Source: an uncultured Pseudomonadales bacterium (lineage in GTDB: Bacteria > Pseudomonadota > Gammaproteobacteria > Pseudomonadales > Azotimanducaceae). From it: DNA of 64,000 bases. Under the pieces are notes generated by a model. That model saw only the letters and a program-made list of their open reading frames with translations, was not told the DNA's origin and searched no databases. Shown here piece by piece: positions 8,578 through 35,853 of the stretch. The position numbers and the translations under genes are program-made. Position 1 is the stretch's first letter, and each line of letters opens with the position of its first letter. The stretch covers positions 12,304 to 76,303 of the forward strand of contig CAZYYJ010000015.1 in the NCBI GenBank assembly GCA_964651595.1. Reading direction: 5' to 3'.

Positions 8578-11500
8578 ATGCGCAAAGCCACACAATGGGT
8601 CAAACCCTTCTCGTACACGCTGATTGCGCTGGTGCTGCCGGCGTTTGCCTATTTCATCGTGTTCATCGAGGTGCGCGAGGAAGCGCTCATTGAGCGCATC
8701 CACACGCAACTCGCCATGATTGCCACCCGCACCGAGAGTCGCCTCAATCAGGCGTTCCGCGTGGTGAAGAACGCTGACGCCCGGTACGACAAACGCAACA
8801 CCGTATATGCCCAGGGGGAGTTTGGCCTGGTCAACGCGGACTGTGCGGTCGATCGGCAAAACGAGACAGACCTGAAGGCGCGGCTCGACGGCATCGACGC
8901 CACGCTGGGTGAGGTGTGCATCAACGTTGATCTCGGCCTCGCCTACGAGGTCAGCGAATTTGGCGCAACGTTCTTCCACAATGCCGAAGGCACCGAGACA
9001 GATTCGCGGGAAGTGGTGACATCGGAGCAGCTCGACGGCCCCGAATACGAATTCCTGCAAACGTCCTACAAGCCGTCCGGACGCGCCGTACGCAGAGCGA
9101 GTGCGCCGGCAGCACAACTCGTGGGCTCGGTAGATGTTGCCGGGCGCTTTCACGACCTGCTGTTGATTTACGACGAGAAGACCGTCTACCAGAAGTTTCC
9201 CGAAAAGGGTCGGGTGGTGGACGTGGACGCCATTGATCCGGGTGCGGATGACGCGGAGGACGGCGATTCGGATGCTTCGCTGCAGCCCGTTGCGGATGCG
9301 CTGGACGGCATGCGCGTGAGTTACCAGGGCCGGACGTTTCTCGTGTTCGAGCAACCGATTGCGTTCAGCTTCACCGACAAGCAGTGGCGCATGCTGGGCC
9401 TCGTGGACGAGGCGGTGCTGAACGCGGAGAAGATGCGCTTCGAACGGGGCACGATGAGCCTGATTGTGCTCGCCGCAATCACCCTGCTTCTGTTGATTCC
9501 CTTTGCCAAAGTCTGGTTTCTGGGGCGCTACGGTTCCCTGACGCAGTCGGACATGCTGGCGCTGGTGGTGTGCGGCTTCAGCCTGGTTGCCCTTCTGACG
9601 CTCGTGCTGCTGCACTGGTGGACCGCTGAGCGGCTGCTGCACGCGTGGGATGCGCGCCTGGAGGCCGTGGCCACGGAAATGGCGGAGGATGTGGAAACCG
9701 AGATCCGCGGTGCCGTCACCCAGTTGGACGCAGCCATCCTGCCGATGCGCCAGGCGTTCGAGGCGACACTGGTCTACGGGGACAAGGCAAACTGGAGCAG
9801 CCGTTCCGGTTGTGACCGGCTCGCTAACTTCGAGGACAAGGAGGGGCTGGGCACCTTGGCCAGTAACCTTGCGGCCGGCGGCGCTGACTACGATGCCCGC
9901 GGTCTGACCATTGCGTATCCGCATCTGCGCATGGTGTACCTCATGGACCAGAAGGGCTGTCAGATCGTCAAATGGACCACCTACGACCGGTGGACGGCAC
10001 CGGGGCGGTTTGCAGATCGCGATTACTACCAGCGCCCGCGCCGTGACGGCCGGGTTGCACCGGCGTTGTACAGCATGGCCGACGTCCCCGACTTTTTTAT
10101 CGGTACCATCCAGTCGCGCACCACGGGAGACAAATCTGTCGTTTACAGCCTGCCGGTGGCAGACGTCTGCCCGCCCGAAGAAGCGGAAGGGGTCGAGGCG
10201 GCGTCGTGTGTCGCGGTGCTTTCCGCCACGGGTCTGCGCACCCTGGAGGCAGCCATGCCGAGTGGCTTCGGCTTTGCGCTCATAGACGGGCGGGGTGACA
10301 TTCTCTTTCACAGTGACGGCGGTACGACCGCGGAAACCAATCTGCGTGACGAGCTGGGCAATGGCATTCTACTGACCACGGCCATGCGCCAGGCTACGCC
10401 CCGGCCGGGGGCGGATTTCATCACCACCTACCGCGGGGTGACGCAGCGCTTCGAGGTGGTGCCGCTCACGGGCCTCAAAGGACCGAACTGGCACCTGGTG
10501 GTGTTTGCCGATCAGAACGCCGTGATACTGCCGTTGCTGGAAACTGCGGGCATCACCATTGTGTTGTGGCTGTTCGGCTTCGGCATCGCGTTGACCCTCT
10601 TCATGGGTTGGCTGCGGCGACGCCCCGTCGAAGCCAGGCGTAAGGGAGACGCAGACACCGCAGACGCGGCATCGGTCTCGCTGGCCGTGGTGATCGTCGC
10701 CGGCATGCTCTACCTCATTGCCATGCTCGCTTTTTCCCTCGACGAGCTGCTCGCGCTGGTGCTGGGCGGCTTATCCACGCTGCTGCTGATGGCTTGCGCG
10801 GTTCGCCACCTGCACAGCCACCTGCAGGACAAGACGCACAACGCGCGGCCCTTTGTGCTAGCGGGCATAGGCCTGTTACTGGGCGCGTCGATTCTGCCGG
10901 TGCACCTGCTGCATCAATACGTGGCGCGCGAAGCCGTGGACTCACTCACGAAGCTGCAGATCGACGAGCACTGGGTGGGGCAGGGGCGTCAGGCTCAGCT
11001 CAAGCGGGAGTGGCAGCGTCGGGTAGCGCTGCCCGAGGAAGCCAGCTATCGCGACGAGGCGCTCACGTTCTGGCCGACCTATTCGCTGTTCGGCGACAAG
11101 CTGGTGGCTGGAAGTGCGGCAGCGGATGCTCCGCTGGCTGCCCCGGACCGGAACCTGTTGGCGTTCATACCGGATTATTCCGCGGTGGCAGCCACCCAGC
11201 ATGCGATGTATCGCGTGCCCGATACGCGCTTTGCCGATGTCTGTCTCGAGGGTGCTACGAGCGTTTGCGGTGTCGGGGATCTGCGCCGGCAGATTCTGCG
11301 GGAGCGGGTGGAGAACTTTGCGTTCTACTTCTGGTTCTGGGTGGTAACGCTGCTGCTGGTGGGCGCGGTGTTGCTGACCTTGTGGTCGCTGCTGGTGCGC
11401 ACCCTGGGGATACGTGCCGAAGATTTTCTGCGCATCAGCAACTTCAGCCCGCCCGGTGAGAACGCGGGCGCGCGGGACATCATCTATGGGCTTGGAGAGT

Positions 11501-12426
11501 TCACCAAGCCGAAGTTTCTATCTGCCATTGCGGAAAGCCGGCGCGAGTGGGTTGACCTGCGCCTCGTTCCAGGCACAACGCCGGTGCAGAACGTGGCCGC
11601 CGATCCCGACAGAGATGTGGTGGTGCTGGATCACTTCGATGATTTTCTGATTGATCCGGCGGTGCTGAATCATCGGGTGATGTTGCTGGAACATCTCGTG
11701 CGCGATAAGCAGCGCTCAGTGATTCTTCTGCTCAGCGTGGATCCGCTCAACTTCGTGACATCCACTTACAGCGCCGCTGACAACGCGGCTCTGATCTCAC
11801 GCTTCGCATCGCTGCTGTCGCGCTTCCGGGCCTCTTACTACCAGGAATCGCGGCCACCGGAGCCCGGGGACAGCATCGGGGAAATCACGCTGCACGCCGA
11901 GTGTTTTCATCCCAATCTCGCAAAGATCCGCGAGAGTCTGCTGGCGCACGATGAGCAGCTGGGTCCTGACGAGATCATTCAGCAGGTTGGTCATCGAGCC
12001 AATGCCATTTATCAACATATGTGGGGGCTGTGCACGCGCGTGGAGAAGCTCACGCTCATAGAGCTCGCGCACGGAAACGTGGTTAACCCCAACAACTGGG
12101 ATGCAGCGCGGCGGTTGAAGCAGCGCGGCTACCTGCGCCGCGATCCCTTTCACCGGATCTTCAACGAGAGCTTCACGCGTTTCATTCTGCGTATGGAGCG
12201 CATAGAAGACGTGGATTCCTGGCGGGCCGAGAACCCGGGCATGTGGGCCAGTATCCGGCTGCCGCTGGTGGTGGCAGCTCTCGGCGGCATCGTCTTTCTC
12301 GGCGTGACGCAGCCGGCCTTTTTCAACAGCGCTTTTGCCTTCGCCGCGGCGGGTACAGCCGGGTTGCCATTTCTCACCAGCCTGCTGGTCTCTAGATTCA
12401 ACCGGTCTTCAGCGGACAAAGCCTGA
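8578..12426 (+). CDS. large (1282 aa) hypothetical multi-pass membrane protein
   Basis: Long ORF with several clear TM helices and plausible codon usage. No Walker, His-kinase or other catalytic motif recognised. The 650-aa antisense ORF looks like antisense noise. Confidence 0.6.
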   Translation: MRKATQWVKPFSYTLIALVLPAFAYFIVFIEVREEALIERIHTQLAMIATRTESRLNQAFRVVKNADARYDKRNTVYAQGEFGLVNADCAVDRQNETDLKARLDGIDATLGEVCINVDLGLAYEVSEFGATFFHNAEGTETDSREVVTSEQLDGPEYEFLQTSYKPSGRAVRRASAPAAQLVGSVDVAGRFHDLLLIYDEKTVYQKFPEKGRVVDVDAIDPGADDAEDGDSDASLQPVADALDGMRVSYQGRTFLVFEQPIAFSFTDKQWRMLGLVDEAVLNAEKMRFERGTMSLIVLAAITLLLLIPFAKVWFLGRYGSLTQSDMLALVVCGFSLVALLTLVLLHWWTAERLLHAWDARLEAVATEMAEDVETEIRGAVTQLDAAILPMRQAFEATLVYGDKANWSSRSGCDRLANFEDKEGLGTLASNLAAGGADYDARGLTIAYPHLRMVYLMDQKGCQIVKWTTYDRWTAPGRFADRDYYQRPRRDGRVAPALYSMADVPDFFIGTIQSRTTGDKSVVYSLPVADVCPPEEAEGVEAASCVAVLSATGLRTLEAAMPSGFGFALIDGRGDILFHSDGGTTAETNLRDELGNGILLTTAMRQATPRPGADFITTYRGVTQRFEVVPLTGLKGPNWHLVVFADQNAVILPLLETAGITIVLWLFGFGIALTLFMGWLRRRPVEARRKGDADTADAASVSLAVVIVAGMLYLIAMLAFSLDELLALVLGGLSTLLLMACAVRHLHSHLQDKTHNARPFVLAGIGLLLGASILPVHLLHQYVAREAVDSLTKLQIDEHWVGQGRQAQLKREWQRRVALPEEASYRDEALTFWPTYSLFGDKLVAGSAAADAPLAAPDRNLLAFIPDYSAVAATQHAMYRVPDTRFADVCLEGATSVCGVGDLRRQILRERVENFAFYFWFWVVTLLLVGAVLLTLWSLLVRTLGIRAEDFLRISNFSPPGENAGARDIIYGLGEFTKPKFLSAIAESRREWVDLRLVPGTTPVQNVAADPDRDVVVLDHFDDFLIDPAVLNHRVMLLEHLVRDKQRSVILLLSVDPLNFVTSTYSAADNAALISRFASLLSRFRASYYQESRPPEPGDSIGEITLHAECFHPNLAKIRESLLAHDEQLGPDEIIQQVGHRANAIYQHMWGLCTRVEKLTLIELAHGNVVNPNNWDAARRLKQRGYLRRDPFHRIFNESFTRFILRMERIEDVDSWRAENPGMWASIRLPLVVAALGGIVFLGVTQPAFFNSAFAFAAAGTAGLPFLTSLLVSRFNRSSADKA

Positions 12427-25593: not shown

Positions 25594-25670
25594 CGGAGTG
25601 TAGCTCAGCTTGGTAGAGCACTACGTTCGGGACGTAGGGGCCGGAGGTTCAAATCCTCTCACTCCGACCA
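25594..25670 (+). tRNA. tRNA-Pro (anticodon CGG)
   Basis: Perfect cloverleaf: 7-bp acceptor CGGAGTG/CACTCCG, D-arm GCTC/GAGC, anticodon loop TTCGGGA, T-arm GGAGG-TTCAAAT-CCTCT, discriminator A plus CCA. Confidence 0.9.
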
Positions 25671-26012: not shown

Positions 26013-27620
26013 TTAGGCCCGCGAAATCTGCTCAAACGAAACGCCGAACTTGTCTAGATACCGCTTCAATCTGTGCGAGTCATTGGTACTCGCTTTTTTC
26101 TCGCGAGAGACAGCAAACAACTGCCGACCTGCTTCCGCCATCGATCTGGACTTTCTACAAACACTGGCGACGTATCCCAGCTGAACACGATCAAATGGAT
26201 CTATCCCTAGTACAGCTTCAGCCCCAAGCAGCGTTGCCAAGAACTCTTCTCCTTCATTGCCGCCAGCAGCTCCGGCCTGCCATCGTAGCTTTAGTAAATC
26301 TATTTCTTGATCGACAATATCCTTGGAGATACGCCCGCCATCTGCCAATGTCGACATCCGCAAAACACTCGAGTTGAGATCGCGAAAGTTGGCGCGCCAT
26401 TCAGCTTCCCCAATGGCAAATTGAACGTAGCGGTCGCGAGCTTCCCGACTGAACCTAATCATAGTGCCAAGTCTCGACCGAGCGTTTTCGACTTCAAAGT
26501 CCAGGTTCGGTTCGATGTCTTCTACACGCTCCTTGAGAGGCGGAAGGTGATAAGTCCAGAGGTCGAGGCGGGCGATTAAATCTTCTCTAAACCGCCCCTC
26601 GCCCACCATCTGCCACAAGTTCTGATTTGTGCCAGCAATAAGCTGAAAGTTGCTGCTGACTTCTTTATCACTGCCGAGCGGAAAGAAGTGTTTCGTCTCA
26701 ATCGCATTGAGCAACATCGCTTGCTCTTCCACGCCCAGCTCGCCGATTTCATCTAGAAACAGAAGCCCATCGTCGGCCTCTCGTAACAGTCCGGCTCGAT
26801 CAGTTGTGGCGCCTGTGAAGGCACCTTTTGCGTGACCAAACAAAGTGGAACTCACCGCGTCTCCTCTTAGCGTCGCGCAGTTCACTGAGACAAAGTTACC
26901 GCCAAATTGAGTACGTTGTTTTTTTAACTCAAAGATCTGCTTCGCCAACTGCGACTTTCCTGCGCCAGTAGGACCGGTTAATAAGATTGGTTCGCTTGAT
27001 CGAATTGATACCTTCTCAATTTGCTCGATCATTGTGTTGAACGCTTTGTTTTTTGTTTGAATACCCTGCTTCAGGTACTCGGTACCCTCTAATTGTTCCA
27101 ATCGAAATCTTGAGGCGATCTGATCATATTTTGAGAGATCTAGATCGATGACATGATATTCGCCTACAGGAAGATCACCTTCCGTTGGCCGGCTGTTCGG
27201 TGGTGAGGTCTGGATTAAGGTTCCAGGCACGTATCGAGCTTCGGTTAGCAGGAACCAACAAATCTGAGCAACGTGAGTGCCCGTTGTCATATGAACCAGA
27301 TAACGCTCTGACTCTATGTCGAATTGATAGTCATCCGTAAAGGATCGAAGTACCCCATATACGTTCGCAAAGTCCCAAGGATCATCTTGCTTAATGACGT
27401 GCTGCACGACCATCGTTTCCGGCGAGATAGTTTCGATATCCCTGGTTACTTGGTCCGCAAGTGATTGGTAGCGCTCTTCTAGAAGCAATTCCAAGCGATC
27501 AACAACAAAGTCATCGTGCTGGCAGAGCGAAACCGTTGGCCGCCACGCATTCCATCTTTTTGAACCTCGCCCCCTGCGATCAAGGTTCGTACCCAACATG
27601 CCAATCACTACTGTCTTCAT
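26013..27620 (-). CDS. rtcR: RtcR, sigma-54-dependent transcriptional activator with N-terminal CARF domain
   Basis: AAA+ sigma-54 activator motifs (LLTGPTGAGKS, the GAFTGA loop as GAFTGATTD, ESELFGH-like), a C-terminal HTH, and a CARF-type N-terminus like RtcR. Divergently placed from rtcBA. Confidence 0.9.
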   Translation of the reverse strand: MKTVVIGMLGTNLDRRGRGSKRWNAWRPTVSLCQHDDFVVDRLELLLEERYQSLADQVTRDIETISPETMVVQHVIKQDDPWDFANVYGVLRSFTDDYQFDIESERYLVHMTTGTHVAQICWFLLTEARYVPGTLIQTSPPNSRPTEGDLPVGEYHVIDLDLSKYDQIASRFRLEQLEGTEYLKQGIQTKNKAFNTMIEQIEKVSIRSSEPILLTGPTGAGKSQLAKQIFELKKQRTQFGGNFVSVNCATLRGDAVSSTLFGHAKGAFTGATTDRAGLLREADDGLLFLDEIGELGVEEQAMLLNAIETKHFFPLGSDKEVSSNFQLIAGTNQNLWQMVGEGRFREDLIARLDLWTYHLPPLKERVEDIEPNLDFEVENARSRLGTMIRFSREARDRYVQFAIGEAEWRANFRDLNSSVLRMSTLADGGRISKDIVDQEIDLLKLRWQAGAAGGNEGEEFLATLLGAEAVLGIDPFDRVQLGYVASVCRKSRSMAEAGRQLFAVSREKKASTNDSHRLKRYLDKFGVSFEQISRA

Positions 27621-27754
27621 ATCTTTCTAAATATATAGCTATCTTTTTGGATAGGTTATTCCAGACTTCTCTGAGAAGATAGAGGGGTGCTGCGGACTAG
27701 AAGATCTATATATATCAAAGGGTTACTGAAACGAGAATGCAAATTTTTATAAGT

Positions 27755-27770
27755 TGGCACGCTTATCGCT
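27755..27770 (+). promoter_or_regulatory. sigma-54 (-24/-12) promoter for rtcBA
   Basis: TGGCACgcttaTCGCT: GG-N10-GC spacing matches the RpoN consensus TGGCAC-N5-TTGC. Lies 50-65 bp upstream of the rtcB ATG and divergent from rtcR. Confidence 0.6.
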
Positions 27771-27821
27771 ATACAGATAACAATCGGAAAATGGCAAGCA
27801 AGTAAGACCAAAGGAATAAAC

Positions 27822-29066
27822 ATGAGCAACGAAGCAGACAGCATTGATCCTTCCTACGAATTGACCCGTGGAAGCGAGGTGGACATTAAGTCTTGGACTA
27901 GGGGCGTCGCTTTTGAAGACGAAGCCCGTGAGCAACTTAAGAACATCTCAACGTTGCCTTTCATTCATAAGTGGATCGCAGTCATGCCCGATGTCCATTT
28001 GGGCAAAGGCGCGACTATCGGCAGCGTTGTACCAACCATTGGCGCGGTGATTCCCGCTGCAGTTGGAGTGGATATCGGGTGCGGCATGATGGCTGTACGC
28101 ACCAGTCTTGTCGCAAATGACTTGCCCGATAGTTTGAGCGGGGTGCGCACCGCTGTTGAAGCAGCGGTCCCGCACGGGCGCTCGGGACGTGCCCGAGGCT
28201 CGAGAGATAAAGGTGCTTGGGGAAATGTTCCCGAAGACGTAGCCGCTGCTTGGACTGACTTGTCTGAAAAGTTCAGCGTGCTGTGTGACAAGCACCCTGT
28301 ATTGAAGAACACGAACAACGTTATTCACTTGGGTACGTTGGGAACCGGGAATCACTTCATCGAGATTTGTCTAGATGAAAAGGACTCTGTTTGGTTCATG
28401 TTGCACAGTGGATCGAGAGGAGTAGGTAACCGTATCGGTACTTACTTCATCGAGCAGGCGAGAAAGGAAATGGAGCGACACCAAATCAACTTGCCTGATC
28501 GTGACTTGGCCTACTTGTCCGAAGGCAGCGAAGGCTTTGGTGACTATGTCGAAGCAGTCGAGTGGGCGCAGACTTTTGCGCGCATCAACCGAGAAGTCAT
28601 GATGGCTCGAGTCATCGGGGCTGTTCGCAGCGAACTCGACATCGCCTTTGAGGCTCGACTGGAAGCCGTAAATTGCCACCACAACTACGTGAATCGTGAA
28701 ACTCACTATGGTGAAGATGTGTTGGTGACCAGGAAAGGTGCCGTGTCTGCTCGCAAGGGTCAGATGGGCATCATTCCCGGAAGCATGGGTGCTCGTTCAT
28801 TTATTGTTCGAGGACTTGGAAACGAAGAGAGTTTCTGTAGCTGCAGCCATGGTGCTGGTCGTGTCATGTCGCGTACAAAGGCAAAGAAACTGGTGAGCTT
28901 GGACGAACATGTCAAAGCAACCGAAGGAGTCGAATGTCGGAAGGACGCTGGAGTGATCGATGAAACGCCTGCCGCATACAAAGACATTGATGCAGTGATG
29001 GCTGCTCAGTCCGACCTTGTCGAAGTGGTTTACACGCTTAAGCAGGTTGTCTGTGTAAAAGGTTAG
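27822..29066 (+). CDS. rtcB: RtcB RNA-splicing ligase (3'-phosphate/5'-OH ligase)
   Basis: Conserved RtcB motifs: MPDVHLGKG, GTGNHF, HNY, SHGAGR. AAGGA Shine-Dalgarno. Confidence 0.92.
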   Translation: MSNEADSIDPSYELTRGSEVDIKSWTRGVAFEDEAREQLKNISTLPFIHKWIAVMPDVHLGKGATIGSVVPTIGAVIPAAVGVDIGCGMMAVRTSLVANDLPDSLSGVRTAVEAAVPHGRSGRARGSRDKGAWGNVPEDVAAAWTDLSEKFSVLCDKHPVLKNTNNVIHLGTLGTGNHFIEICLDEKDSVWFMLHSGSRGVGNRIGTYFIEQARKEMERHQINLPDRDLAYLSEGSEGFGDYVEAVEWAQTFARINREVMMARVIGAVRSELDIAFEARLEAVNCHHNYVNRETHYGEDVLVTRKGAVSARKGQMGIIPGSMGARSFIVRGLGNEESFCSCSHGAGRVMSRTKAKKLVSLDEHVKATEGVECRKDAGVIDETPAAYKDIDAVMAAQSDLVEVVYTLKQVVCVKG

Positions 29067-29137
29067 CCCATTGTCTATTCACTTTAGTGGGAGGGGCTGG
29101 CCAACCCCAATCGAAACTAAACCTAACGGTGACGAAA

Positions 29138-30190
29138 ATGGCAGCAATGGAAATTGACGGCAGTATGGGTGAAGGCGGCGGGCAAGTGCTCAGAACCGCC
29201 CTTACGCTGTCTATGTGCCTGACGCAGCCTATCGCCGTCACTAACATCCGCTCAGGGCGTAAAAAGTCAGGGTTGCTACGCCAACATCTCGCCGCCTTAA
29301 AAGCGGCTGCTGAGATATCGGATGCAGAACTAGAAGGTGCCGAGCTGGGATCTACAGAGATTAGGTTTTTGCCTGGTGTCGTGAAGTCTGGCTCTTACGA
29401 ATTCAAAATTGGTTCAGCTGGTAGTACGACGCTTTTGGCTCAAACGATCATACCTGCACTGAGCATGTTGAAGGAGCAAAGCAGCGTGACCGTGCATGGT
29501 GGTACTCACAACGGCATGGCTCCAAGTGTTGAGTTCGTAGAACTGGCTCTGGTCCCTTTGCTGAAGCGCGCCGGATTAGGCATGGATTCTGACTTGTTGC
29601 GATATGGATTTTATCCAAACGGGGGTGGCACCTGGAAAGCGACAGTCGAACCATGGACCAATGCTCGGTTTGTTGAACTCATCGTACGAGGCAAACCGGT
29701 TTCGAGAGAAGCAGTTGCCACTATCAGCAACCTGCAATCTCACATTGGTGAGCGTGAGCTTGAAAGAGTTGCCAAAAAGCTGGCCTGGACGAACGAAGAA
29801 CTGGTCCTCAAAGAGGTATCAGCGCCGGGCCCCGGGAACTTGCTTTCGTTGAGGTGCGTTTACGAAAACGTCACCGAGGTCTTCGAATCAGTGGGTTCCA
29901 TTGGTTTAAGCGCGGAGAGAGTGGCAGGAAGAGCAATAAGAGATGCTAAGCAATATGTTCAAGGTCGGCATGTTGTTGGTGAGTACTTGGCTGATCAGTT
30001 GCTTCTACCTCTGGTTTTAGGCGCTGGCGGCGTGTTCACCACCGGAGCGCTTAGCAGCCACTGTCGCACCAACATGGCTCTGATAAATCAGATGTTGGGC
30101 GCGGACTATTTCGAGATCGTCGAAGAGATGACAGAGGTGGGGCCGCACTCGACGATAAGAATCCCGAAAGGTTTAGCGCTGGCCCGTTAG
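29138..30190 (+). CDS. rtcA: RtcA RNA 3'-terminal phosphate cyclase
   Basis: N-terminal GEGGGQVLRTALTLS and LRQHL motifs of the RtcA family. Start chosen at MAAMEIDGS, in-frame within the 29087 ORF. Confidence 0.88.
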   Translation: MAAMEIDGSMGEGGGQVLRTALTLSMCLTQPIAVTNIRSGRKKSGLLRQHLAALKAAAEISDAELEGAELGSTEIRFLPGVVKSGSYEFKIGSAGSTTLLAQTIIPALSMLKEQSSVTVHGGTHNGMAPSVEFVELALVPLLKRAGLGMDSDLLRYGFYPNGGGTWKATVEPWTNARFVELIVRGKPVSREAVATISNLQSHIGERELERVAKKLAWTNEELVLKEVSAPGPGNLLSLRCVYENVTEVFESVGSIGLSAERVAGRAIRDAKQYVQGRHVVGEYLADQLLLPLVLGAGGVFTTGALSSHCRTNMALINQMLGADYFEIVEEMTEVGPHSTIRIPKGLALAR

Positions 30191-30304
30191 ACCCAAAGGA
30201 AAACCAGATGGTTTGTTAGCGGAACTGGCTCGTGAGTCCAGCCCGGCGAATGATGCAGCTGAACCTTGGTATTCATTCGTACCAACGAAACAATCTGAAG
30301 CAAT

Positions 30305-30377
30305 AGCTTGTTAGCTCAGTTGGTAGAGCGATCCATTTAGATTGGATTTGTCCCAGGTTCAATTCCTGGACAAGCAC
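30305..30377 (+). ncRNA. tRNA-like element (pseudo-tRNA / possible Y-RNA-like tRNA mimic), anticodon-position UAG, no CCA
   Basis: Cloverleaf: acceptor AGCTTGT/ACAAGCA with an A-A mismatch at 1-72, D-arm GCTC-AGTTGGTA-GAGC, anticodon arm ATCCA-TTTAGAT-TGGAT, 5-nt variable loop, T-arm CCAGG-TTCAATT-CCTGG. Lies immediately downstream of rtcA. Confidence 0.5.
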
Positions 30378-30827
30378 ATTGGGAAAAGCCCTATAACGGC
30401 TTGGGGTTCGACTCCCCTCGAAGGTGATTCCTTCAAAAAGACGGTGGCGCTCGCACATATGAGCTATGGCTTGTGTGTGTTTGCAAGAGCTCGAAGAACC
30501 GTATGGTCCGAGTGCGAAAGCCTTACTCTGGCCTCGCACATTCTGGCTTCACGCAGATTCGAGTTCCGGCTGGGTCGAACTGGCGTCAGTTCCCCTCGTC
30601 TGTTTTAGGAAGAGAGCTGCATTCTATAGTGAAAGCGTGCCGCTGATATGTATTCAACCCGTTGACGTGCAGCTGCACAAACGCGCGTTGACAACTTGAT
30701 GCTGCTGCTAAGTCTAAATGGGGATATGTCTCTTCTTACACAGAGGGTAACCACGTTCCAGAACGACAGAGTGCCACTCTTACTGTGACCGCCCCCACCC
30801 ATGGGGGAAATTTGAGGAGACATACAC

Positions 30828-31970
30828 ATGGTCACGAAAACGATCCGTGTGGCAGAAAATCAGCGGGTACTCTGGTTCCGCGACGGCAACCTAATGGGTG
30901 TGTTGGCTCCTGGAAAGTACAAATTCTGGAAGCGAACACGACATTTGCGATTTGAGTCCTACGACGTCGCAGACGGCGAAGCCGTTTTGCCCAACGCTCA
31001 GTACTTGATTCGTGAGCACAGCGAAATGTTGGGGCAGCACTTGGAAATTCGAGAACTCGAACAGAACCAAGTTGCCTTGATCTCCGTGAACAAGCTAGTC
31101 AAACGTCTGGCCTTGCCCGGTGAAGTGATCGCTTTCTGGAAGAATTCGGTCGATTCCAGCATCGAGGTCGAGAACTTCGCTGAAAGCCTGACCGTTCCCG
31201 ATGAATGGGTTAAGGCTATCAATCAAAGTGGTGACGCTGTTGCGCTGGCAACGCTTAACAAAGCGATATTGCCCGTTACGGTAGATCAGGGTTTCGAAGC
31301 ACTGTTGGTGAACGATGGCGAGATCGCGAGAAGCCTCGCTCCTGGCCGTTATGCGTTTTGGAAACTGGGAAGAGACATAAAAGTCCTCTCAGTAGACAAG
31401 CGTGTGCAGGAAATTGAGATCAACGGTCAGGAGATTCTGACCCGAGATCGGGTTTCACTACGCACCAACGCATCGCTTCAATATCGCATCACGGACGCTG
31501 TTAAAGCGGTTGTTGATACGCCTGATGTGGTCGGATTGGCTTATCGAGCAGTTCAGTTTGCCCTGCGTCGAACGATTGGTTCGCTCACGTTGGACGAACT
31601 ATTGGGTGACAAAACCAAGCTTGGAGACGACGTTCAATCCCAGGTAAGCAGTGAGCTCGCAAATGTGGGTATAGCGGTCACCATGGTTGGCATCAAGGAC
31701 TTCATCTTGCCCGGCGAGATGAAAACGATTTTGAACCAAGTGGTTGAAGCCGAGAAAGTCGCCGAGGCGAATGCAATTCGCCGACGTGATGAAACCCAGG
31801 CAGTCCGAGCACTGGCTAACACGGCAAAGCAGCTGGAAAGCAATGCAATGATGGCCAGGCTTAAGGAGCTAGAAGCACTGCAAACCGTTTCTTCTAGCGT
31901 CGATACCTTGAACGTCTATAACGGACTGGATGGCGTGATGGGTCAACTTGTGAAACTCCAATCCGAATAG
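30828..31970 (+). CDS. SPFH/band-7 (stomatin/prohibitin/flotillin-like) domain protein with N-terminal triple repeat
   Basis: C-terminal SPFH-like region plus coiled-coil (EAEKVAEANAIRRRDETQAV...). Three N-terminal copies of a LAPG-Y-FWK motif. Confidence 0.7.
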   Translation: MVTKTIRVAENQRVLWFRDGNLMGVLAPGKYKFWKRTRHLRFESYDVADGEAVLPNAQYLIREHSEMLGQHLEIRELEQNQVALISVNKLVKRLALPGEVIAFWKNSVDSSIEVENFAESLTVPDEWVKAINQSGDAVALATLNKAILPVTVDQGFEALLVNDGEIARSLAPGRYAFWKLGRDIKVLSVDKRVQEIEINGQEILTRDRVSLRTNASLQYRITDAVKAVVDTPDVVGLAYRAVQFALRRTIGSLTLDELLGDKTKLGDDVQSQVSSELANVGIAVTMVGIKDFILPGEMKTILNQVVEAEKVAEANAIRRRDETQAVRALANTAKQLESNAMMARLKELEALQTVSSSVDTLNVYNGLDGVMGQLVKLQSE

Positions 31971-32029: not shown

Positions 32030-32476
32030 ATGGATAACCGCAAAAAAACCTATGTCTTTGATATGGACGGTACGCTGGCGTTGGTGGACCATCGGCGAGG
32101 ACTCCTGGAGGGAGAGAAGCCAGACTGGCATAGCTTCAATAAGGCATCCCTACTTGATCCCCCGAACGAGCCTGTAAGCAATGTTCTCAAATCCTTGTTT
32201 GCGGCAGGCTTTCAGATTTGGATCGTTAGCGGTAGGAGCGATATTGCAGAGTTAGAAACTCGAGGGTGGCTTACAAAATACGAGATTCCCTTCCACCAAC
32301 TGTTGATGCGATCTGCTTCAGACAACAGACCAGACGATATCCTGAAAAAGGAGTGGGCGCTGAAGTATCAGTTTCCGGAAACAGTTTTAGCGGTTTTCGA
32401 TGACCGTAACTCCGTTGTAAATATGTGGCGAGACCTAAACATTCCTTGTTTCCAGGTCGCCGAAGGAGACTTTTAG
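32030..32476 (+). CDS. stand-alone HAD-family polynucleotide 3'-phosphatase (T4 Pnkp phosphatase-domain-like)
   Basis: DxDGT motif (FDMDGTL). C-terminal AVFDDRNSVVNMWRDLNIPCFQVAEGDF closely matches the C-terminus of the phage T4 Pnkp phosphatase domain (...DDR..VVEMWRR.GV.CWQVASGDF). Confidence 0.75.
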   Translation: MDNRKKTYVFDMDGTLALVDHRRGLLEGEKPDWHSFNKASLLDPPNEPVSNVLKSLFAAGFQIWIVSGRSDIAELETRGWLTKYEIPFHQLLMRSASDNRPDDILKKEWALKYQFPETVLAVFDDRNSVVNMWRDLNIPCFQVAEGDF

Positions 32477-33273
32477 TGTCAATTCCACAGGGTGTTCGAG
32501 ATGAGATCATTCGAAGGCTGAACGCCTGTGAACTAGAACACGGCGTCCGAATCATCTATTGCGCGGAATCTGGATCCAGGGCTTGGGGATTTGCCTCCCC
32601 CGACTCAGACTATGACGTGCGCTTTATTTACGTGCGGCCTAGCGATTGGTACTTGTCATTTGACGTTGAACGCAGGAGAGACGTCATCGAGTATCCGATT
32701 GTCGACGAAATCGATATCAATGGCTGGGACTTACGAAAAGCTCTCTATCTGTTTACTCGTACCAACGGCGCCTTATTGGAGTGGTTGGGAAGCCCTATTG
32801 TGTATAGAGAAATCGGAGAAACCGCTGCGAACCTTCGAGAACTGGCACGCTCACATATCAGCGATATCGCACTCTGTTACCACTACAGTCACATGGCCCG
32901 TCGCAACGCTCAACAATTCCTTGAGAAAGATGAAGTGAAACTCAAGAAATACTTCTACGTGCTGCGACCATTACTCGCGATTCGGTGGATTCAGAACGGT
33001 AAGGGAGTACCCCCTGTTCCGTTTGAAGAACTACTACACGCAGAAGCGCCAGCAAGCCTAATCGGTGAGGTAGAGAAGCTTCTTGAAGTGAAGAAGAGAA
33101 CCCCGGAGCTAGGAGTCGGACCTAGGATTCAGGAGATTAATGACTTCGTGTTTGGTGAGTTTGAGCGCTATGGAGACCAGTTCTCGGGGCAAGGTAGACC
33201 AGAGCAGGAAAGCTCGGAGCGACGGGAAGAACTTAACGATGTATTTCGGAGTGCGGTGAATACACAGCCCTAA
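32476..33273 (+). CDS. Pol-beta-superfamily nucleotidyltransferase (COG3541-like)
   Basis: GS-x9-DSDYD nucleotidyltransferase motif (ESGSRAWGFASPDSDYDVRF). GTG start overlaps the phosphatase stop (TAGTG), indicating translational coupling. Confidence 0.6.
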   Translation: MSIPQGVRDEIIRRLNACELEHGVRIIYCAESGSRAWGFASPDSDYDVRFIYVRPSDWYLSFDVERRRDVIEYPIVDEIDINGWDLRKALYLFTRTNGALLEWLGSPIVYREIGETAANLRELARSHISDIALCYHYSHMARRNAQQFLEKDEVKLKKYFYVLRPLLAIRWIQNGKGVPPVPFEELLHAEAPASLIGEVEKLLEVKKRTPELGVGPRIQEINDFVFGEFERYGDQFSGQGRPEQESSERREELNDVFRSAVNTQP

Positions 33274-33354: not shown

Positions 33355-35853
33355 ATGATCAATCCCGAAGAAGGCAGCAGCAACACAGACAACAACCTCG
33401 TAGCCGCAGAGTTACTGGACCGGTATGCGCAGCTCGATTTGTCCGACGCAAACGAAGCAGAGACGCGACTCAAACTAATAGATCGGATTTTCTTTGAGCT
33501 TTTAGGATGGTCACATGACGATGTTACTGTGGAGGAGCGTGTAACAGAGGATTCTGGGCTTGCATACACAGACTACGTTTTCCGAACCGCTAACACAGCC
33601 TTCATAGTTGAGGCCAAGCGGGTCGGCCAAACCTTCAAGTCTGTAGGAGATATGCGTCGTTCCAAACTTACAGGCAACTTGGTGAAAGGCCAGTCCGGGG
33701 ACGCGATCAAACAAGTCCGAGATTACTGCAGACAAAAGTCTATTCAATTTGCAGTCGCGACAAATGGAGCTCAGTGGGTCGTGTTTCCAGCAGTTCGAAC
33801 TGATCAGGTTAGTTTTGCAAACTCTTCTGCAATCATCTTCGACTCTCTGGCCACTGTTTTAGGCCAGGAGTTCGACGACTTCTACGAGCTGCTATCGCGC
33901 GACGCAGTTATAAATGGACATCTAGAACTCGAGCTTCTCGGTAGAAGTGAAGACCAGATCGAAGAACGAAGACTGAACGCATTTTATGGTTCGACTGGAA
34001 GATCAAAACGAAACCCCATCTATCCCCTGATTCAAGACGCTATTACGGAGGCATTTACTGACTCAATAATCGACAAGGACGATCAATTACTAGAGAAGTG
34101 CTACGTACCATCTGCCGATAGGATCAGGTTCGACAAAAAAATCAAAATGCATCTGCAGCGAGCGGATAGCCTATTTAGCAGGCAAGCGGCGAGACCGCTC
34201 CGCCGAAGCTCCGATGCCAAAGTACTTTCCGAATCAGTGGAGGCAGCTCGCGGCCTTGGGCGTCCTCTTGCAGTACTCGTTCTTGGGCCAGTTGGGGCGG
34301 GTAAGACAACTTACCTAAACTACTCCAGACGAGTTTCGGCGAAGGCGTTCTTTTCAGAGAAGAAAGACCGACTTTACCCTCAATGGATTCAAATTGATTT
34401 CCGCAAGCTCAGTGGTTCGGAATCGCCAACTGACTTTGTGTACTCATGCCTGCTGGAATACATGCGTGACGAGCCGCTCTTAAAAGATTGGGGGCGCGCT
34501 GTTCGGCCAGCTTACGGGAAGGACATCGAATCGCTAAAGGCCGGTCCCTTACATCTTTTGGCGAAGAACGAAGAAAAATTCGAAGAGAAAATCTCTGAAC
34601 TGGTGCTGAAAGACTATGAGTCTGTAACTCCGTATGTGGACAAAGTCCTTGGATGGCTTGGGGGTCACGAACCTATTTTCTTAGTTGTCGACAATGTGGA
34701 TCAATTTGAGTCCTCTGATTTTCAATCAAAGATTTTCTCCGAATGTATTGCGATCGCCAGCCGAATTGGACTGAATCTGGTGATGTCGATGCGCGAATCA
34801 ACCTATATCGAACATCGTCACTCAGCGACATTTGACGCGTTCGATTTCGACCCAATTCAGATCGAACCCCCTCAGATTGGGCCGGTTCTTTCTAGGCGCT
34901 TTTTCGTTGCAAAAAACATCCTCAAAAATCGGCCCGGCGAGTTTCGTACACAGAGTGGACCGCTGTTTCGCGCTGCCGATTTGTCGGTTTTCATGGATGT
35001 CGTACAGAGTTCGGTTCTCGGCACCGAAGTTGGAACACGGATAGAAGTCCTTGCTGACGGCGATGTGAGGCTAGCGTTGCGCATGACCAGGGAGTTTCTA
35101 GAGTCCGGCTATTCAGATCCCGCAAAAGCAATTGCAGTAGTCGAACGCGGAGAGACTTACACAATGCCCAAACACGAGGCCCTCCGCTCGATCATCCTGG
35201 GGAACAAAACAACATACTCTGAGGAATTGTCTGTATTGGGGAACCCCTTTGACTCACGCCAAGGTATTACCAATCTCCAGTTGTTAAGAACGTTCATTTT
35301 AAATGCGTTAGTGAGCCTGAGCAGTGATGGAAGATTTAAGAAACTTGATGGCCCGACTATAAGGGATGAGTGCAACAAGATAGGCGTTTCTCAGGACATA
35401 ACGCTAAACACACTAAAGGACCTGTGTCGCCTGAACTTTGTCAGCACGTCGTCCCACGCAGAAGCTGATTTCACCTCGAGCTTCTTCCCGAGCCGATTGG
35501 GCGGCTTCATCATCCGCGACTTAATGGCAGATATGACTTTCGTGGAGAACGTGCTTCTAGATACATTTATCGACGAAAAAGAGACCTGGGAAATCCTGAG
35601 AAAGCTAAGCGACGAAATACAGGCGGAACGACAGCCAACAAAACGACTCAAAGTCAGGGTCAAACGTGTTAAAGCTTTCTACGAATACATGGAGGAGCTA
35701 TACACTCCACTAGCAGCCGAAGCCCAACGGAGAGCTCTACCAAAAGAGTGGTGTAGTAATCCGCTTAAAGAGAACAAGACTCGGCTCTGGAACAACTGTA
35801 ATCAGGCGATCAAGTCCTCCACCAGGCACTATCCCGCAAAGGCCAAAAGGTAA
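33355..35853 (+). CDS. PD-(D/E)xK nuclease (HsdR-N/Mrr-like) / P-loop NTPase fusion protein, 832 aa
   Basis: N-terminal EAETRLKLIDRIFFELLGW...YTDYVF...FIVEAKR, a restriction-endonuclease-like D...EAK motif. Central Walker A VLGPVGAGKTT and Walker B IFLVVDNVDQFE. Long alpha-helical C-terminus. Confidence 0.6.
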   Translation: MINPEEGSSNTDNNLVAAELLDRYAQLDLSDANEAETRLKLIDRIFFELLGWSHDDVTVEERVTEDSGLAYTDYVFRTANTAFIVEAKRVGQTFKSVGDMRRSKLTGNLVKGQSGDAIKQVRDYCRQKSIQFAVATNGAQWVVFPAVRTDQVSFANSSAIIFDSLATVLGQEFDDFYELLSRDAVINGHLELELLGRSEDQIEERRLNAFYGSTGRSKRNPIYPLIQDAITEAFTDSIIDKDDQLLEKCYVPSADRIRFDKKIKMHLQRADSLFSRQAARPLRRSSDAKVLSESVEAARGLGRPLAVLVLGPVGAGKTTYLNYSRRVSAKAFFSEKKDRLYPQWIQIDFRKLSGSESPTDFVYSCLLEYMRDEPLLKDWGRAVRPAYGKDIESLKAGPLHLLAKNEEKFEEKISELVLKDYESVTPYVDKVLGWLGGHEPIFLVVDNVDQFESSDFQSKIFSECIAIASRIGLNLVMSMRESTYIEHRHSATFDAFDFDPIQIEPPQIGPVLSRRFFVAKNILKNRPGEFRTQSGPLFRAADLSVFMDVVQSSVLGTEVGTRIEVLADGDVRLALRMTREFLESGYSDPAKAIAVVERGETYTMPKHEALRSIILGNKTTYSEELSVLGNPFDSRQGITNLQLLRTFILNALVSLSSDGRFKKLDGPTIRDECNKIGVSQDITLNTLKDLCRLNFVSTSSHAEADFTSSFFPSRLGGFIIRDLMADMTFVENVLLDTFIDEKETWEILRKLSDEIQAERQPTKRLKVRVKRVKAFYEYMEELYTPLAAEAQRRALPKEWCSNPLKENKTRLWNNCNQAIKSSTRHYPAKAKR

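Follow-up and report, generated by a model that had tools for sequence, protein, structure and literature searches.

The transfer RNA (tRNA) mimics YrlA and YrlB both bear a T-arm and are cut from one precursor encoded just upstream of rsr, and the criterion for a Y RNA is that a Ro60/TROVE gene lies no more than about 4 kb away and on the same strand (PMC4201824). A further tRNA-like RNA, b7a-tRNA (band-7-associated tRNA), was predicted by Burroughs and Aravind in 2016, as cited in a preprint from the Wolin laboratory (Wang et al., bioRxiv 10.1101/312249). According to the passages of the preprint that deal with it, the gene for b7a-tRNA adjoins those for a Band-7-domain protein and RtcB, this RNA and YrlA appear to be functionally redundant counterparts, and b7a-tRNA was without experimental validation as of 2018. 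In a full-text literature search the name b7a-tRNA was found only in this 2018 preprint (10.1101/312249), and a search for experimental work linking SPFH, RtcB and tRNA returned nothing relevant. The locus described here lies in a 64,000-nucleotide (nt) stretch of DNA from an uncultured Pseudomonadales bacterium of the Azotimanducaceae (contig CAZYYJ010000015.1, positions 12,304 to 76,303; hereafter the window), in which a 637-nt non-coding gap (30191-30827) separates rtcA from a Band-7/SPFH gene. The gap contains a 73-nt full cloverleaf at 30305-30377 on the + strand, which very probably belongs to the b7a-tRNA kind, since a cloverleaf directly 5' of Band-7 in an RtcB operon fits the published description.

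The element was called tRNA-Leu(tag) by ARAGORN and matched the Rfam tRNA model RF00005 with 59.0 bits (E = 3e-10, search of the whole window); just one further tRNA is present in the window, a tRNA-Pro at 25594 (65.5 bits, Rfam). It begins 114 nt past the rtcA stop (30190) and follows the standard order of acceptor, D, anticodon, variable, T and acceptor segments in the Rfam alignment. The D-loop AGTTGGTA, the T-loop TTCAATT and UAG at positions 34-36 are accompanied by an A1.A72 mismatch (marked 'v' in the cmscan alignment), a variable loop of 5 nt, and C73 followed by ATT, so that CCA is not encoded. The first-pass annotation, made from the letters alone, had noted a near-perfect cloverleaf after rtcA with this D-loop, T-loop and UAG triplet, an A-A apposition at 1-72, a short variable loop and no CCA, and every one of these features was found at 30305-30377.

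The cloverleaf is far beyond chance, as it recurs 5' of Band-7 genes in 81 loci and its four stems covary. Relatives of the Band-7 protein number in the thousands, with at least 591 confirmed in the search. From these, a distant set of 80 genome loci (Band-7 relatives 37-44% identical) and a close set of eight contigs (52-95% identical) were compared, one close contig (L088) ending 290 nt 5' of its Band-7 gene and being used in the alignment only. A same-strand tRNA-like element 5' of Band-7 was present in 73 of the 80 distant loci, in the seven close contigs with a complete gap and in the window. These 81 loci span several bacterial phyla, and the distance from the end of the element to the Band-7 start ranges from 139 to 718 nt, mostly 180-510 nt; in the window it is 451 nt. 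In about 47 of the 80 distant loci the fetched flank includes RtcB, and the tRNA-like element stays 5' of Band-7 with RtcB upstream, downstream or not found in that flank. The element belongs with Band-7, and tracks this gene rather than RtcB, RtcA or RtcR, because it lies directly 5' of Band-7 whatever the operon order.

When 72 elements were aligned, 94.8% of the cells were paired, compared with 64.6% in column shuffles and 34-44% for slid partners, and 17 of 21 pairs changed on both sides (covariation score of 0.765 versus 0.174). The conservation of the structure in homologous loci, which had been proposed as a check, was thus borne out over four stems. The D-arm TAGCTCAG..GGTAGAGCA is invariant at 99-100% while the other three stems vary freely and covary, which suggests sequence-specific recognition of the D-arm. 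The terminal mismatch, the odd anticodon for the class and the missing CCA could also be read as marks of a decaying tRNA pseudogene or a functionless integration-site remnant; this reading has a negligible chance of being correct, given compensatory changes in 81 loci of several phyla at a fixed place relative to one gene family, and a gene order kept on both sides in relatives, and the covariation effectively refutes it. In one close contig (L091, 2590-2610) the tRNA-like element carries a 14-nt insertion, AGCAGTTCGTCTTA, apparently a partial copy of the junction between D-stem and anticodon stem, and ARAGORN makes no call there.

With b7a-tRNA, as far as the preprint describes it, the window element shares an authentic-looking tRNA cloverleaf (ARAGORN, RF00005 with 59 bits, four-stem covariation) and a position adjoining a Band-7/SPFH gene, with RtcR, RtcB, RtcA, HAD_PNKP and RlaP in the same cluster, and none of the observations conflicts with that description. 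The kind, for which Rfam has no family, has already been named in the literature and is not the new Rsr-independent class that was first proposed, in a reading that had overlooked the next gene, Band-7/SPFH at 30828-31970. The 1-72 mismatch, the loop variability, the second T-arm, the 5' hairpin and the 200-400-nt domain, which are treated below, may be new relative to the 2016 description or already contained in it.

The YrlA/YrlB-Ro60 system (rsr-yrlBA-rtcBA, PMC4201824) shares with the window the mimicry of the tRNA D-arm and T-arm, the location in an RtcB repair operon and the arrangement of two tandem T-arm-bearing RNAs or modules just 5' of the gene for a ring- or cage-forming protein; processing of some members by RNase P and the addition of CCA are further listed likenesses. 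YrlA differs in that its order is permuted (T-arm, acceptor-like stem-loop, D-arm) and its two ends form a stem that binds Ro60, whereas the window RNA is unpermuted and has its own anticodon arm. The partner of YrlA is Ro60, and that of the window element would be, from adjacency, the Band-7 protein. Membership in the YrlA/Y RNA family was rejected. No Rfam Y RNA match was obtained at the gathering score in the window or at E ≤ 10 in 29900-31000, the Y_RNA/YrlA models run with Infernal being silent there where the tRNA model matched, and Pfam detected no TROVE/Ro60 domain in the operon genes or in any window open reading frame (ORF) of at least 380 aa, in line with the first-pass annotation, which had seen no Ro60 gene. 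The suggested YrlA likeness is therefore retained as the functional parallel drawn in the cited part of the preprint (bioRxiv 10.1101/312249), and not as kinship, on account of the absent Rfam match, the unpermuted cloverleaf and the lack of TROVE.

Several features of the family bear on whether the element decodes. Pair 1-72 was canonical in 35 of 74 Band-7-adjacent elements, compared with 60 of 65 other tRNAs from the same loci, and the anticodon loop departed from 7 nt in 22 of 81 Band-7-adjacent elements (27%; 4-9 nt) versus 2 of 68 other tRNAs. Among the 59 loops of seven nt, 26 anticodons were counted. Outside the loop, the sequences closest to that of the window element are those of other elements beside Band-7, for which the calls are Phe(aaa), Met(cat), Thr(agt) and Lys(ctt); the tRNA-like body is orthologous and the anticodon is not. 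Bacterial tRNA-Leu is of class II, with a long variable arm, and carries A73. The 5-nt variable loop, C73 and A1.A72 of the window element conflict with Leu identity, and the short variable loop had already been described as not Leu-like.

An ordinary or spare decoding tRNA for CUN Leu codons, induced with the repair operon and replacing nuclease-destroyed tRNAs, would account for the normal-like score (59 bits), the canonical D- and T-loops, the NCCA encoded after position 72 in about 15 of the 81 family members and the large tRNA arrays beside Band-7 in several related loci, and stress-induced arrays co-regulated with rtcB are documented (PMC8421152). Such a tRNA would nevertheless be expected to be of class II with A73 and to have a paired acceptor end, and 1-72 is mismatched in about half of the family as opposed to 8% of neighbouring tRNAs. 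Moreover, the anticodons of orthologues are unrelated, the 27% of loops with aberrant lengths cannot decode, and the nearest relative (L084, Band-7 95% identical) carries AAA instead of TAG. A decoding role is consequently regarded as very improbable as an explanation of the whole, and the tRNA-like element is quite probably not a decoder. The common occurrence of C1.A72 and CAU in the family raised an origin from initiator tRNA, which was rejected because the anticodon stem is without the three G-C pairs and 11-24 is C-G.

The stress-induced tRNA arrays of cyanobacteria (L-arrays), which are co-regulated with rtcB (Santamaria-Gomez et al. 2021, PMC8421152), share with the window the presence of extra tRNA-type genes beside rtcB; they have been proposed to serve as a sponge or a backup when toxins cut tRNAs. 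Array tRNAs differ in forming near-complete isoacceptor sets with 1-72 paired and 7-nt loops; the window holds a single mimic and no array. In several genomes, same-strand tRNA arrays of 19-34 genes, with near-complete isoacceptor sets, surround the b7a-tRNA/Band-7 locus or directly precede it (L008, 1530-4743; L030, 1869-4818; L059, 2662-5448 and 7166-7976; L063, 416-4031), as do smaller sets in L016, L021, L054, L055, L073 and L074; the link of such arrays to Band-7 loci may be new. GOLLD RNA (RF02032) was detected inside two of these arrays, in gammaproteobacterial metagenome-assembled genomes, a few kb 5' of Band-7 (L008, 2330-2817, + strand, 153.5 bits; L059, 3469-3955, + strand, 154.9 bits; gathering score of 150), and a tRNA is nested within each copy (Leu-tag, L008 2399-2475; Arg-tct, L059 3540-3614). 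The array Leu tRNAs were 77-79 nt long by ARAGORN (L008, 2399-2475 and 4489-4743; L030, 3208-3367; L059, 7653-7976) and were without the expected long variable arm, while the Tyr and Ser tRNAs of the same arrays retain theirs.

The gene that follows the tRNA-like element on the same strand (30828-31970, +) encodes a Band-7/SPFH ('slipin') protein of 380 aa (Pfam Band_7, 1.7e-26). The AF2 model, with a predicted local distance difference test score (pLDDT) of 81, comprises three N-terminal beta units, an SPFH domain and a long helix, and no hydrophobic N-terminal segment was apparent on reading the translation. Three 'PG.Y.FWK' beta-unit repeats were also observed at the N-terminus (residues 28-35, 97-105 and 172-179). 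Foldseek searches with the model retrieved the cage-forming SPFH proteins stomatin, HflK/C, prohibitin, erlin and flotillin, with E of about 1e-14 for the stomatin, HflK/C and prohibitin cages, and the major vault protein (MVP) over 410-466 columns at E of about 1e-10, with 12-15% identity and a TM-score of about 0.37. By these features the Band-7 protein resembles a soluble, cage-forming relative of the vault shell. The vault is an RNA-holding particle, and its RNA is not tRNA-shaped and binds TEP1, not MVP. The likeness to the window is one of fold only, the Band-7 model aligning with MVP in its beta repeats, SPFH 'shoulder' and long helix, together with the pairing of a cage-forming (here predicted) protein with a small structured RNA. 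Burroughs and Aravind are said to have set TROVE with Y RNA, Band-7 with tRNA-like RNA, and the vault as a combination of both protein types.

Downstream of the cloverleaf lies a second, 'half-tRNA' module (module 2, 30380-30417, + strand; close-relative alignment and T-arm pairing across loci), composed of TGGG with a D-loop-like GG, a hairpin AAGCC-CTATAAC-GGCTT (30386-30402) and a T-arm GGGG-TTCGACT-CCCC (30403-30417). Both hairpins stand exactly where the first-pass annotation had placed a second pair. The module is kept in all eight close relatives, where its hairpin shows compensatory changes (GCC/GGC to GCT/AGC, CCC/GGG and ACCCG/CGGGT) and a loop of 4-7 nt. The loop has 7 nt only in the window and its nearest relative and 4-6 nt in the others (TAAC, TAAG, GCAA); the description of this hairpin as anticodon-arm-like holds for the window and, because of this range of loop lengths, fails as a general feature of the relatives. 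The T-arm GGGGTTCGAnTCCCC is near-invariant in the close group, and the second T-arm was paired in 70 of 71 loci, with GC, CG, UA and AU pairs. Most distant loci hold either a 'GGTAAAGG-hairpin-T-arm' module or a second complete tRNA-like element in tandem, and two tRNA 'elbows' in a row are for this reason the usual design.

The remainder of the gap is also structured. A conserved 5' element (30214-30250, + strand; close-relative alignment, compensatory variants and nhmmer) contains a hairpin, CTGGCT-CGTG-AG(T)CCAG (30225-30241), with GTTAGCGG as its 5' flank and CCGGCG as its 3' flank. The hairpin sequence is identical in seven of the eight close relatives, and variants compensated on both sides occur in L089 (CTGATTCGTGAATCAG), L009 (CGGGCTCGTGAGTCCCG), L066 (CGGGCTCGCGAGTCCCG) and L073 (GGGGTTCGTGAACCCC). 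Matches of the element by nhmmer lie at the equivalent place in L010 and L009 (E of about 2e-4) and, more weakly, in seven further loci, which gives nine distant loci in all. A long-range pairing proposed by RNAalifold between GUGAGUCC of this element and a downstream GGCGCUCAC box was rejected, as the paired changes in L089, L009, L066 and L073 fall in the two strands of the local hairpin. On the 3' side of module 2, a small hairpin GAAGG-TGATT-CCTTC (30420-30434, + strand; minimum free energy (MFE) folds and alignment) has an equivalent of differing sequence in most close relatives.

The structured distal domain (30443-30778, + strand; MFE z-scores and box pairing) is probably closed by pairing of GGTGGCGCTC (30443-30452) with GAGTGCCACT (30769-30778). 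The region 30420-30830 gave an MFE z of -4.4, and the equivalent spacers of 77 loci a mean z of -4.0 versus -1.6 for coding controls of equal length. In a fixed-box test the partner box of GGTGGCGCTC was retained with changed sequence in L085, L086, L087, L090 and L091 (shuffle p of 0.002-0.07), and in L089 the shuffle p was 0.25, which amounts to moderate backing for the closing helix. The longest helix between the spacer ends was discarded as evidence, as its mean length of 10.0 observed versus 9.7 shuffled was uninformative. A GOLLD-, ROOL- or OLE-type identity for 30420-30827 was likewise dismissed, with no Rfam match at E ≤ 10, and the equivalent spacers of 20 related loci gave no Rfam match at the gathering score. 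The apparent closing helix of three distant loci (L010, L030 and L042) is GAGGCYCAT/GTGGGCCTC, and a similar helix is present in the MFE folds of L014 and L021; the GTGGGCCTC-type 3' strand resembles the 5' strand GGTGGCGCTC of the window group, as if the strands were swapped, possibly by coincidence. The gap was rejected as protein-coding, since its four overlapping ORFs (76-88 aa) include none that stays in frame even in the nearest relative, L084.

Upstream of the gap, rtcR (26013-27620, - strand; Pfam RtcR, 1.8e-80, and Sigma54_activat, 8.7e-49) encodes a CARF-like RtcR domain joined to a sigma-54 activator AAA+ domain and is divergent from rtcB (27822-29066, + strand; RNA ligase; Pfam RtcB, 2.6e-129), which is followed by rtcA (29087-30190, + strand; RNA 3'-phosphate cyclase; Pfam RTC, 1.7e-69, and RTC_insert). 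A sigma-54-type site, TGGCACGCTTATCGC (27755-27769, + strand), lies 53 nt 5' of rtcB with one mismatch to TGGCACG-N4-TTGC; matches of this type occur window-wide at a chance-level count, and the assignment of TGGCACGCTTATCGC as promoter rests on its place beside rtcR and rtcB. After Band-7 come a protein with a HAD-type polynucleotide-kinase-phosphatase (PNKP) phosphatase domain (32030-32476, + strand; Pfam HAD_PNKP, 1e-29) and the RlaP nucleotidyltransferase (32425-33273, + strand; Pfam RlaP, 1.5e-85), for which the gene call on identical contigs (L081) is of 265 aa and puts the start near 32476. RlaP extends damaged 3' ends of RNA by one or two nucleotides ahead of their ligation (PMC12776372). 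The set of RtcR, RtcB, RtcA, PNKP and RlaP genes amounts to a full heal-and-seal kit for broken tRNA, and the first-pass placement of a non-coding tRNA mimic inside a sigma-54/RtcR repair operon is supported. The order RtcB-RtcA-gap-Band-7 is kept in the close contigs with enough flank, with RtcR upstream wherever the flank reaches; HAD_PNKP follows Band-7 in the close contigs except L090 and the truncated L091, and RlaP is present in four. No terminator-like or sigma-70-like site was found in 27500-31200 and no internal sigma-54 promoter in the interval from rtcA to Band-7. A conserved YGGCR 3' of the 5' hairpin was rejected as a promoter, judged from its sequence, for wrong spacing and a missing -12 GC.

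The reading given most weight, which has about an even chance of being right, is that the tRNA-like element is the RNA cofactor of a Band-7 ribonucleoprotein (RNP). The element would be transcribed from the RtcR/sigma-54 promoter together with rtcBA, and the gap RNA would fold into one full and one partial tRNA 'elbow' (the D-loop/T-loop corner). Through its invariant D-arm/T-arm corner or corners the RNA would then bind the stomatin/vault-like Band-7 oligomer, giving an RNP analogous to Ro60-YrlA or the vault, in which the RNA would serve as cofactor in the way that Y RNA does for Ro60. The particle may hold or present broken tRNAs, or the tRNA-recognising enzymes RtcB, RtcA, PNKP phosphatase and RlaP, during the repair of nuclease-cut tRNA, and the fast-changing anticodon loop would be either an unconstrained part or a bait surface.

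Several points weigh against such a cofactor role. Binding to the Band-7 protein is suggested by gene adjacency, which a cis-acting leader would fit as well; co-transcription of the gap with rtcBA is plausible from the lack of consensus promoters and terminators; and b7a-tRNA membership is judged from a secondary description, the relevant part of the preprint (bioRxiv 10.1101/312249). The anticodon loop, in addition, outpaces synonymous sites, which a pure scaffold role does not predict, and 73% of the loci keep a tRNA-like 7-nt loop, with U33 in 73% and a purine at 37 in 90% of these. Between the window and L084, positions 31-39 differ at seven of nine sites, compared with 3 of 64 elsewhere (Fisher p = 2e-6); their 4-fold-site divergence is 0.169, and the probability of at least seven loop differences at that rate is 1e-4. 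Over 14 close pairs the loop differed at 32% of positions versus 8% elsewhere. The loop is not simply decaying, because most loops keep 7 nt, U33 and a purine at 37.

These properties of the loop are those on which a bait or decoy for anticodon nucleases would draw, in which the loop tracks toxin specificity (colicin, PrrC, VapC or PARIS-type) and cleavage would soak up the toxin or yield 2',3'-cyclic-phosphate halves feeding back on the CARF domain of RtcR. The loop is the fastest-evolving part of the element both in the window/L084 comparison and in the 14 close pairs, most loops retain the 7-nt form, U33 and purine 37, and the 1-72 mismatch would, as in initiator tRNA, bar the element from elongation. 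Halves of tRNA with a cyclic-phosphate end activate RtcR (PMC7790460, PMC10159003), YrlA has been suggested to act as a competitive inhibitor, and array tRNAs to act as a 'sponge' (PMC8421152). Nonetheless, 27% of the loops are un-tRNA-like in length and some clades share a loop (CTCATAA in L006, L012 and L021), the window/L084 difference could be a single replacement event and not selection, no linked toxin gene is present in the window, and Salmonella YrlA is uncut by the relevant nuclease. The strict Band-7 linkage and the large structured domain are also left unexplained, and a bait as the principal function is considered unlikely. It is compatible with Band-7 binding, and a bait or decoy role of the loop against anticodon nucleases may coexist with a scaffold role.

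The adjacency to Band-7 is equally what a cis-acting leader of the Band-7 messenger RNA (mRNA) would show, the element being an RNase P/RNase Z signal ('tRNA punctuation', as in MALAT1-mascRNA) or a stabilising or regulatory 5' structure with no function in trans. Its place is invariably 5' of Band-7 on the coding strand of that gene, the structured spacer reaches to about 50 nt from the start codon, no promoter or terminator was found between the tRNA-like element and Band-7, and RNase P cuts the related mimic YrlA of M. smegmatis (PMC4201824). Yet many loci, with divergent RtcR followed by tRNA, Band-7 and RtcB, have the tRNA-like element first after the promoter region, with no upstream mRNA to separate, and a processing signal would need neither the invariance of the D-arm nor a second T-arm module or a conserved 5' hairpin. 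The Ro60/Y RNA parallel further favours a trans-acting RNP, and a leader acting only in cis is judged quite unlikely. A bolder version of the cofactor reading, in which the whole 637-nt gap is one modular RNA, made up of the 5' hairpin, the full tRNA mimic, the half-tRNA elbow and a closed, highly structured domain of about 330 nt, that forms a bacterial vault-like repair particle with the MVP/stomatin-like Band-7 protein, its loop being a nuclease bait under diversifying selection and the particle both sensing and repairing toxin-cut tRNA, is put forward as speculative and rather improbable.

Beyond the repair genes, an 832-aa STAND/AAA_16-like NTPase (33355-35853, + strand; weak Pfam matches) lies after RlaP on the same strand. 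It is not at this position in the nearest relatives L084 and L086, which have other genes instead, and it looks like a variable accessory gene or an unrelated defence-type gene. The ordinary-looking tRNA-Pro(CGG) of the window (25594-25670, + strand, 65.5 bits) is located 340 nt past the 3' end of rtcR and could mark the edge of an inserted repair island. A 1282-aa ORF at 8578-12426 (+ strand) had no Pfam match at E ≤ 1e-5.

The pair of b7a-tRNA and Band-7 is a widespread companion of the RtcB repair system, in which the fixed parts (the D-arm, the two T-arms and the 5' hairpin) and the variable or possibly selected ones (the anticodon loop and pair 1-72) are now marked. Cultured carriers of the locus include Microbulbifer hydrolyticus, Pseudoalteromonas luteoviolacea and Pseudoalteromonas sp. 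SMS1, Cellvibrio fibrivorans, Dyella marensis, Catenovulum sp. SX2 and Motilimonas cestriensis. Should the RNA act as the cofactor of a scaffold or as bait for toxins, this would account for the way in which bacteria steer a general RNA ligase towards damaged tRNA, and it would be a second independent case, beside Ro60-Y RNA, of tRNA mimicry in RNA quality control.

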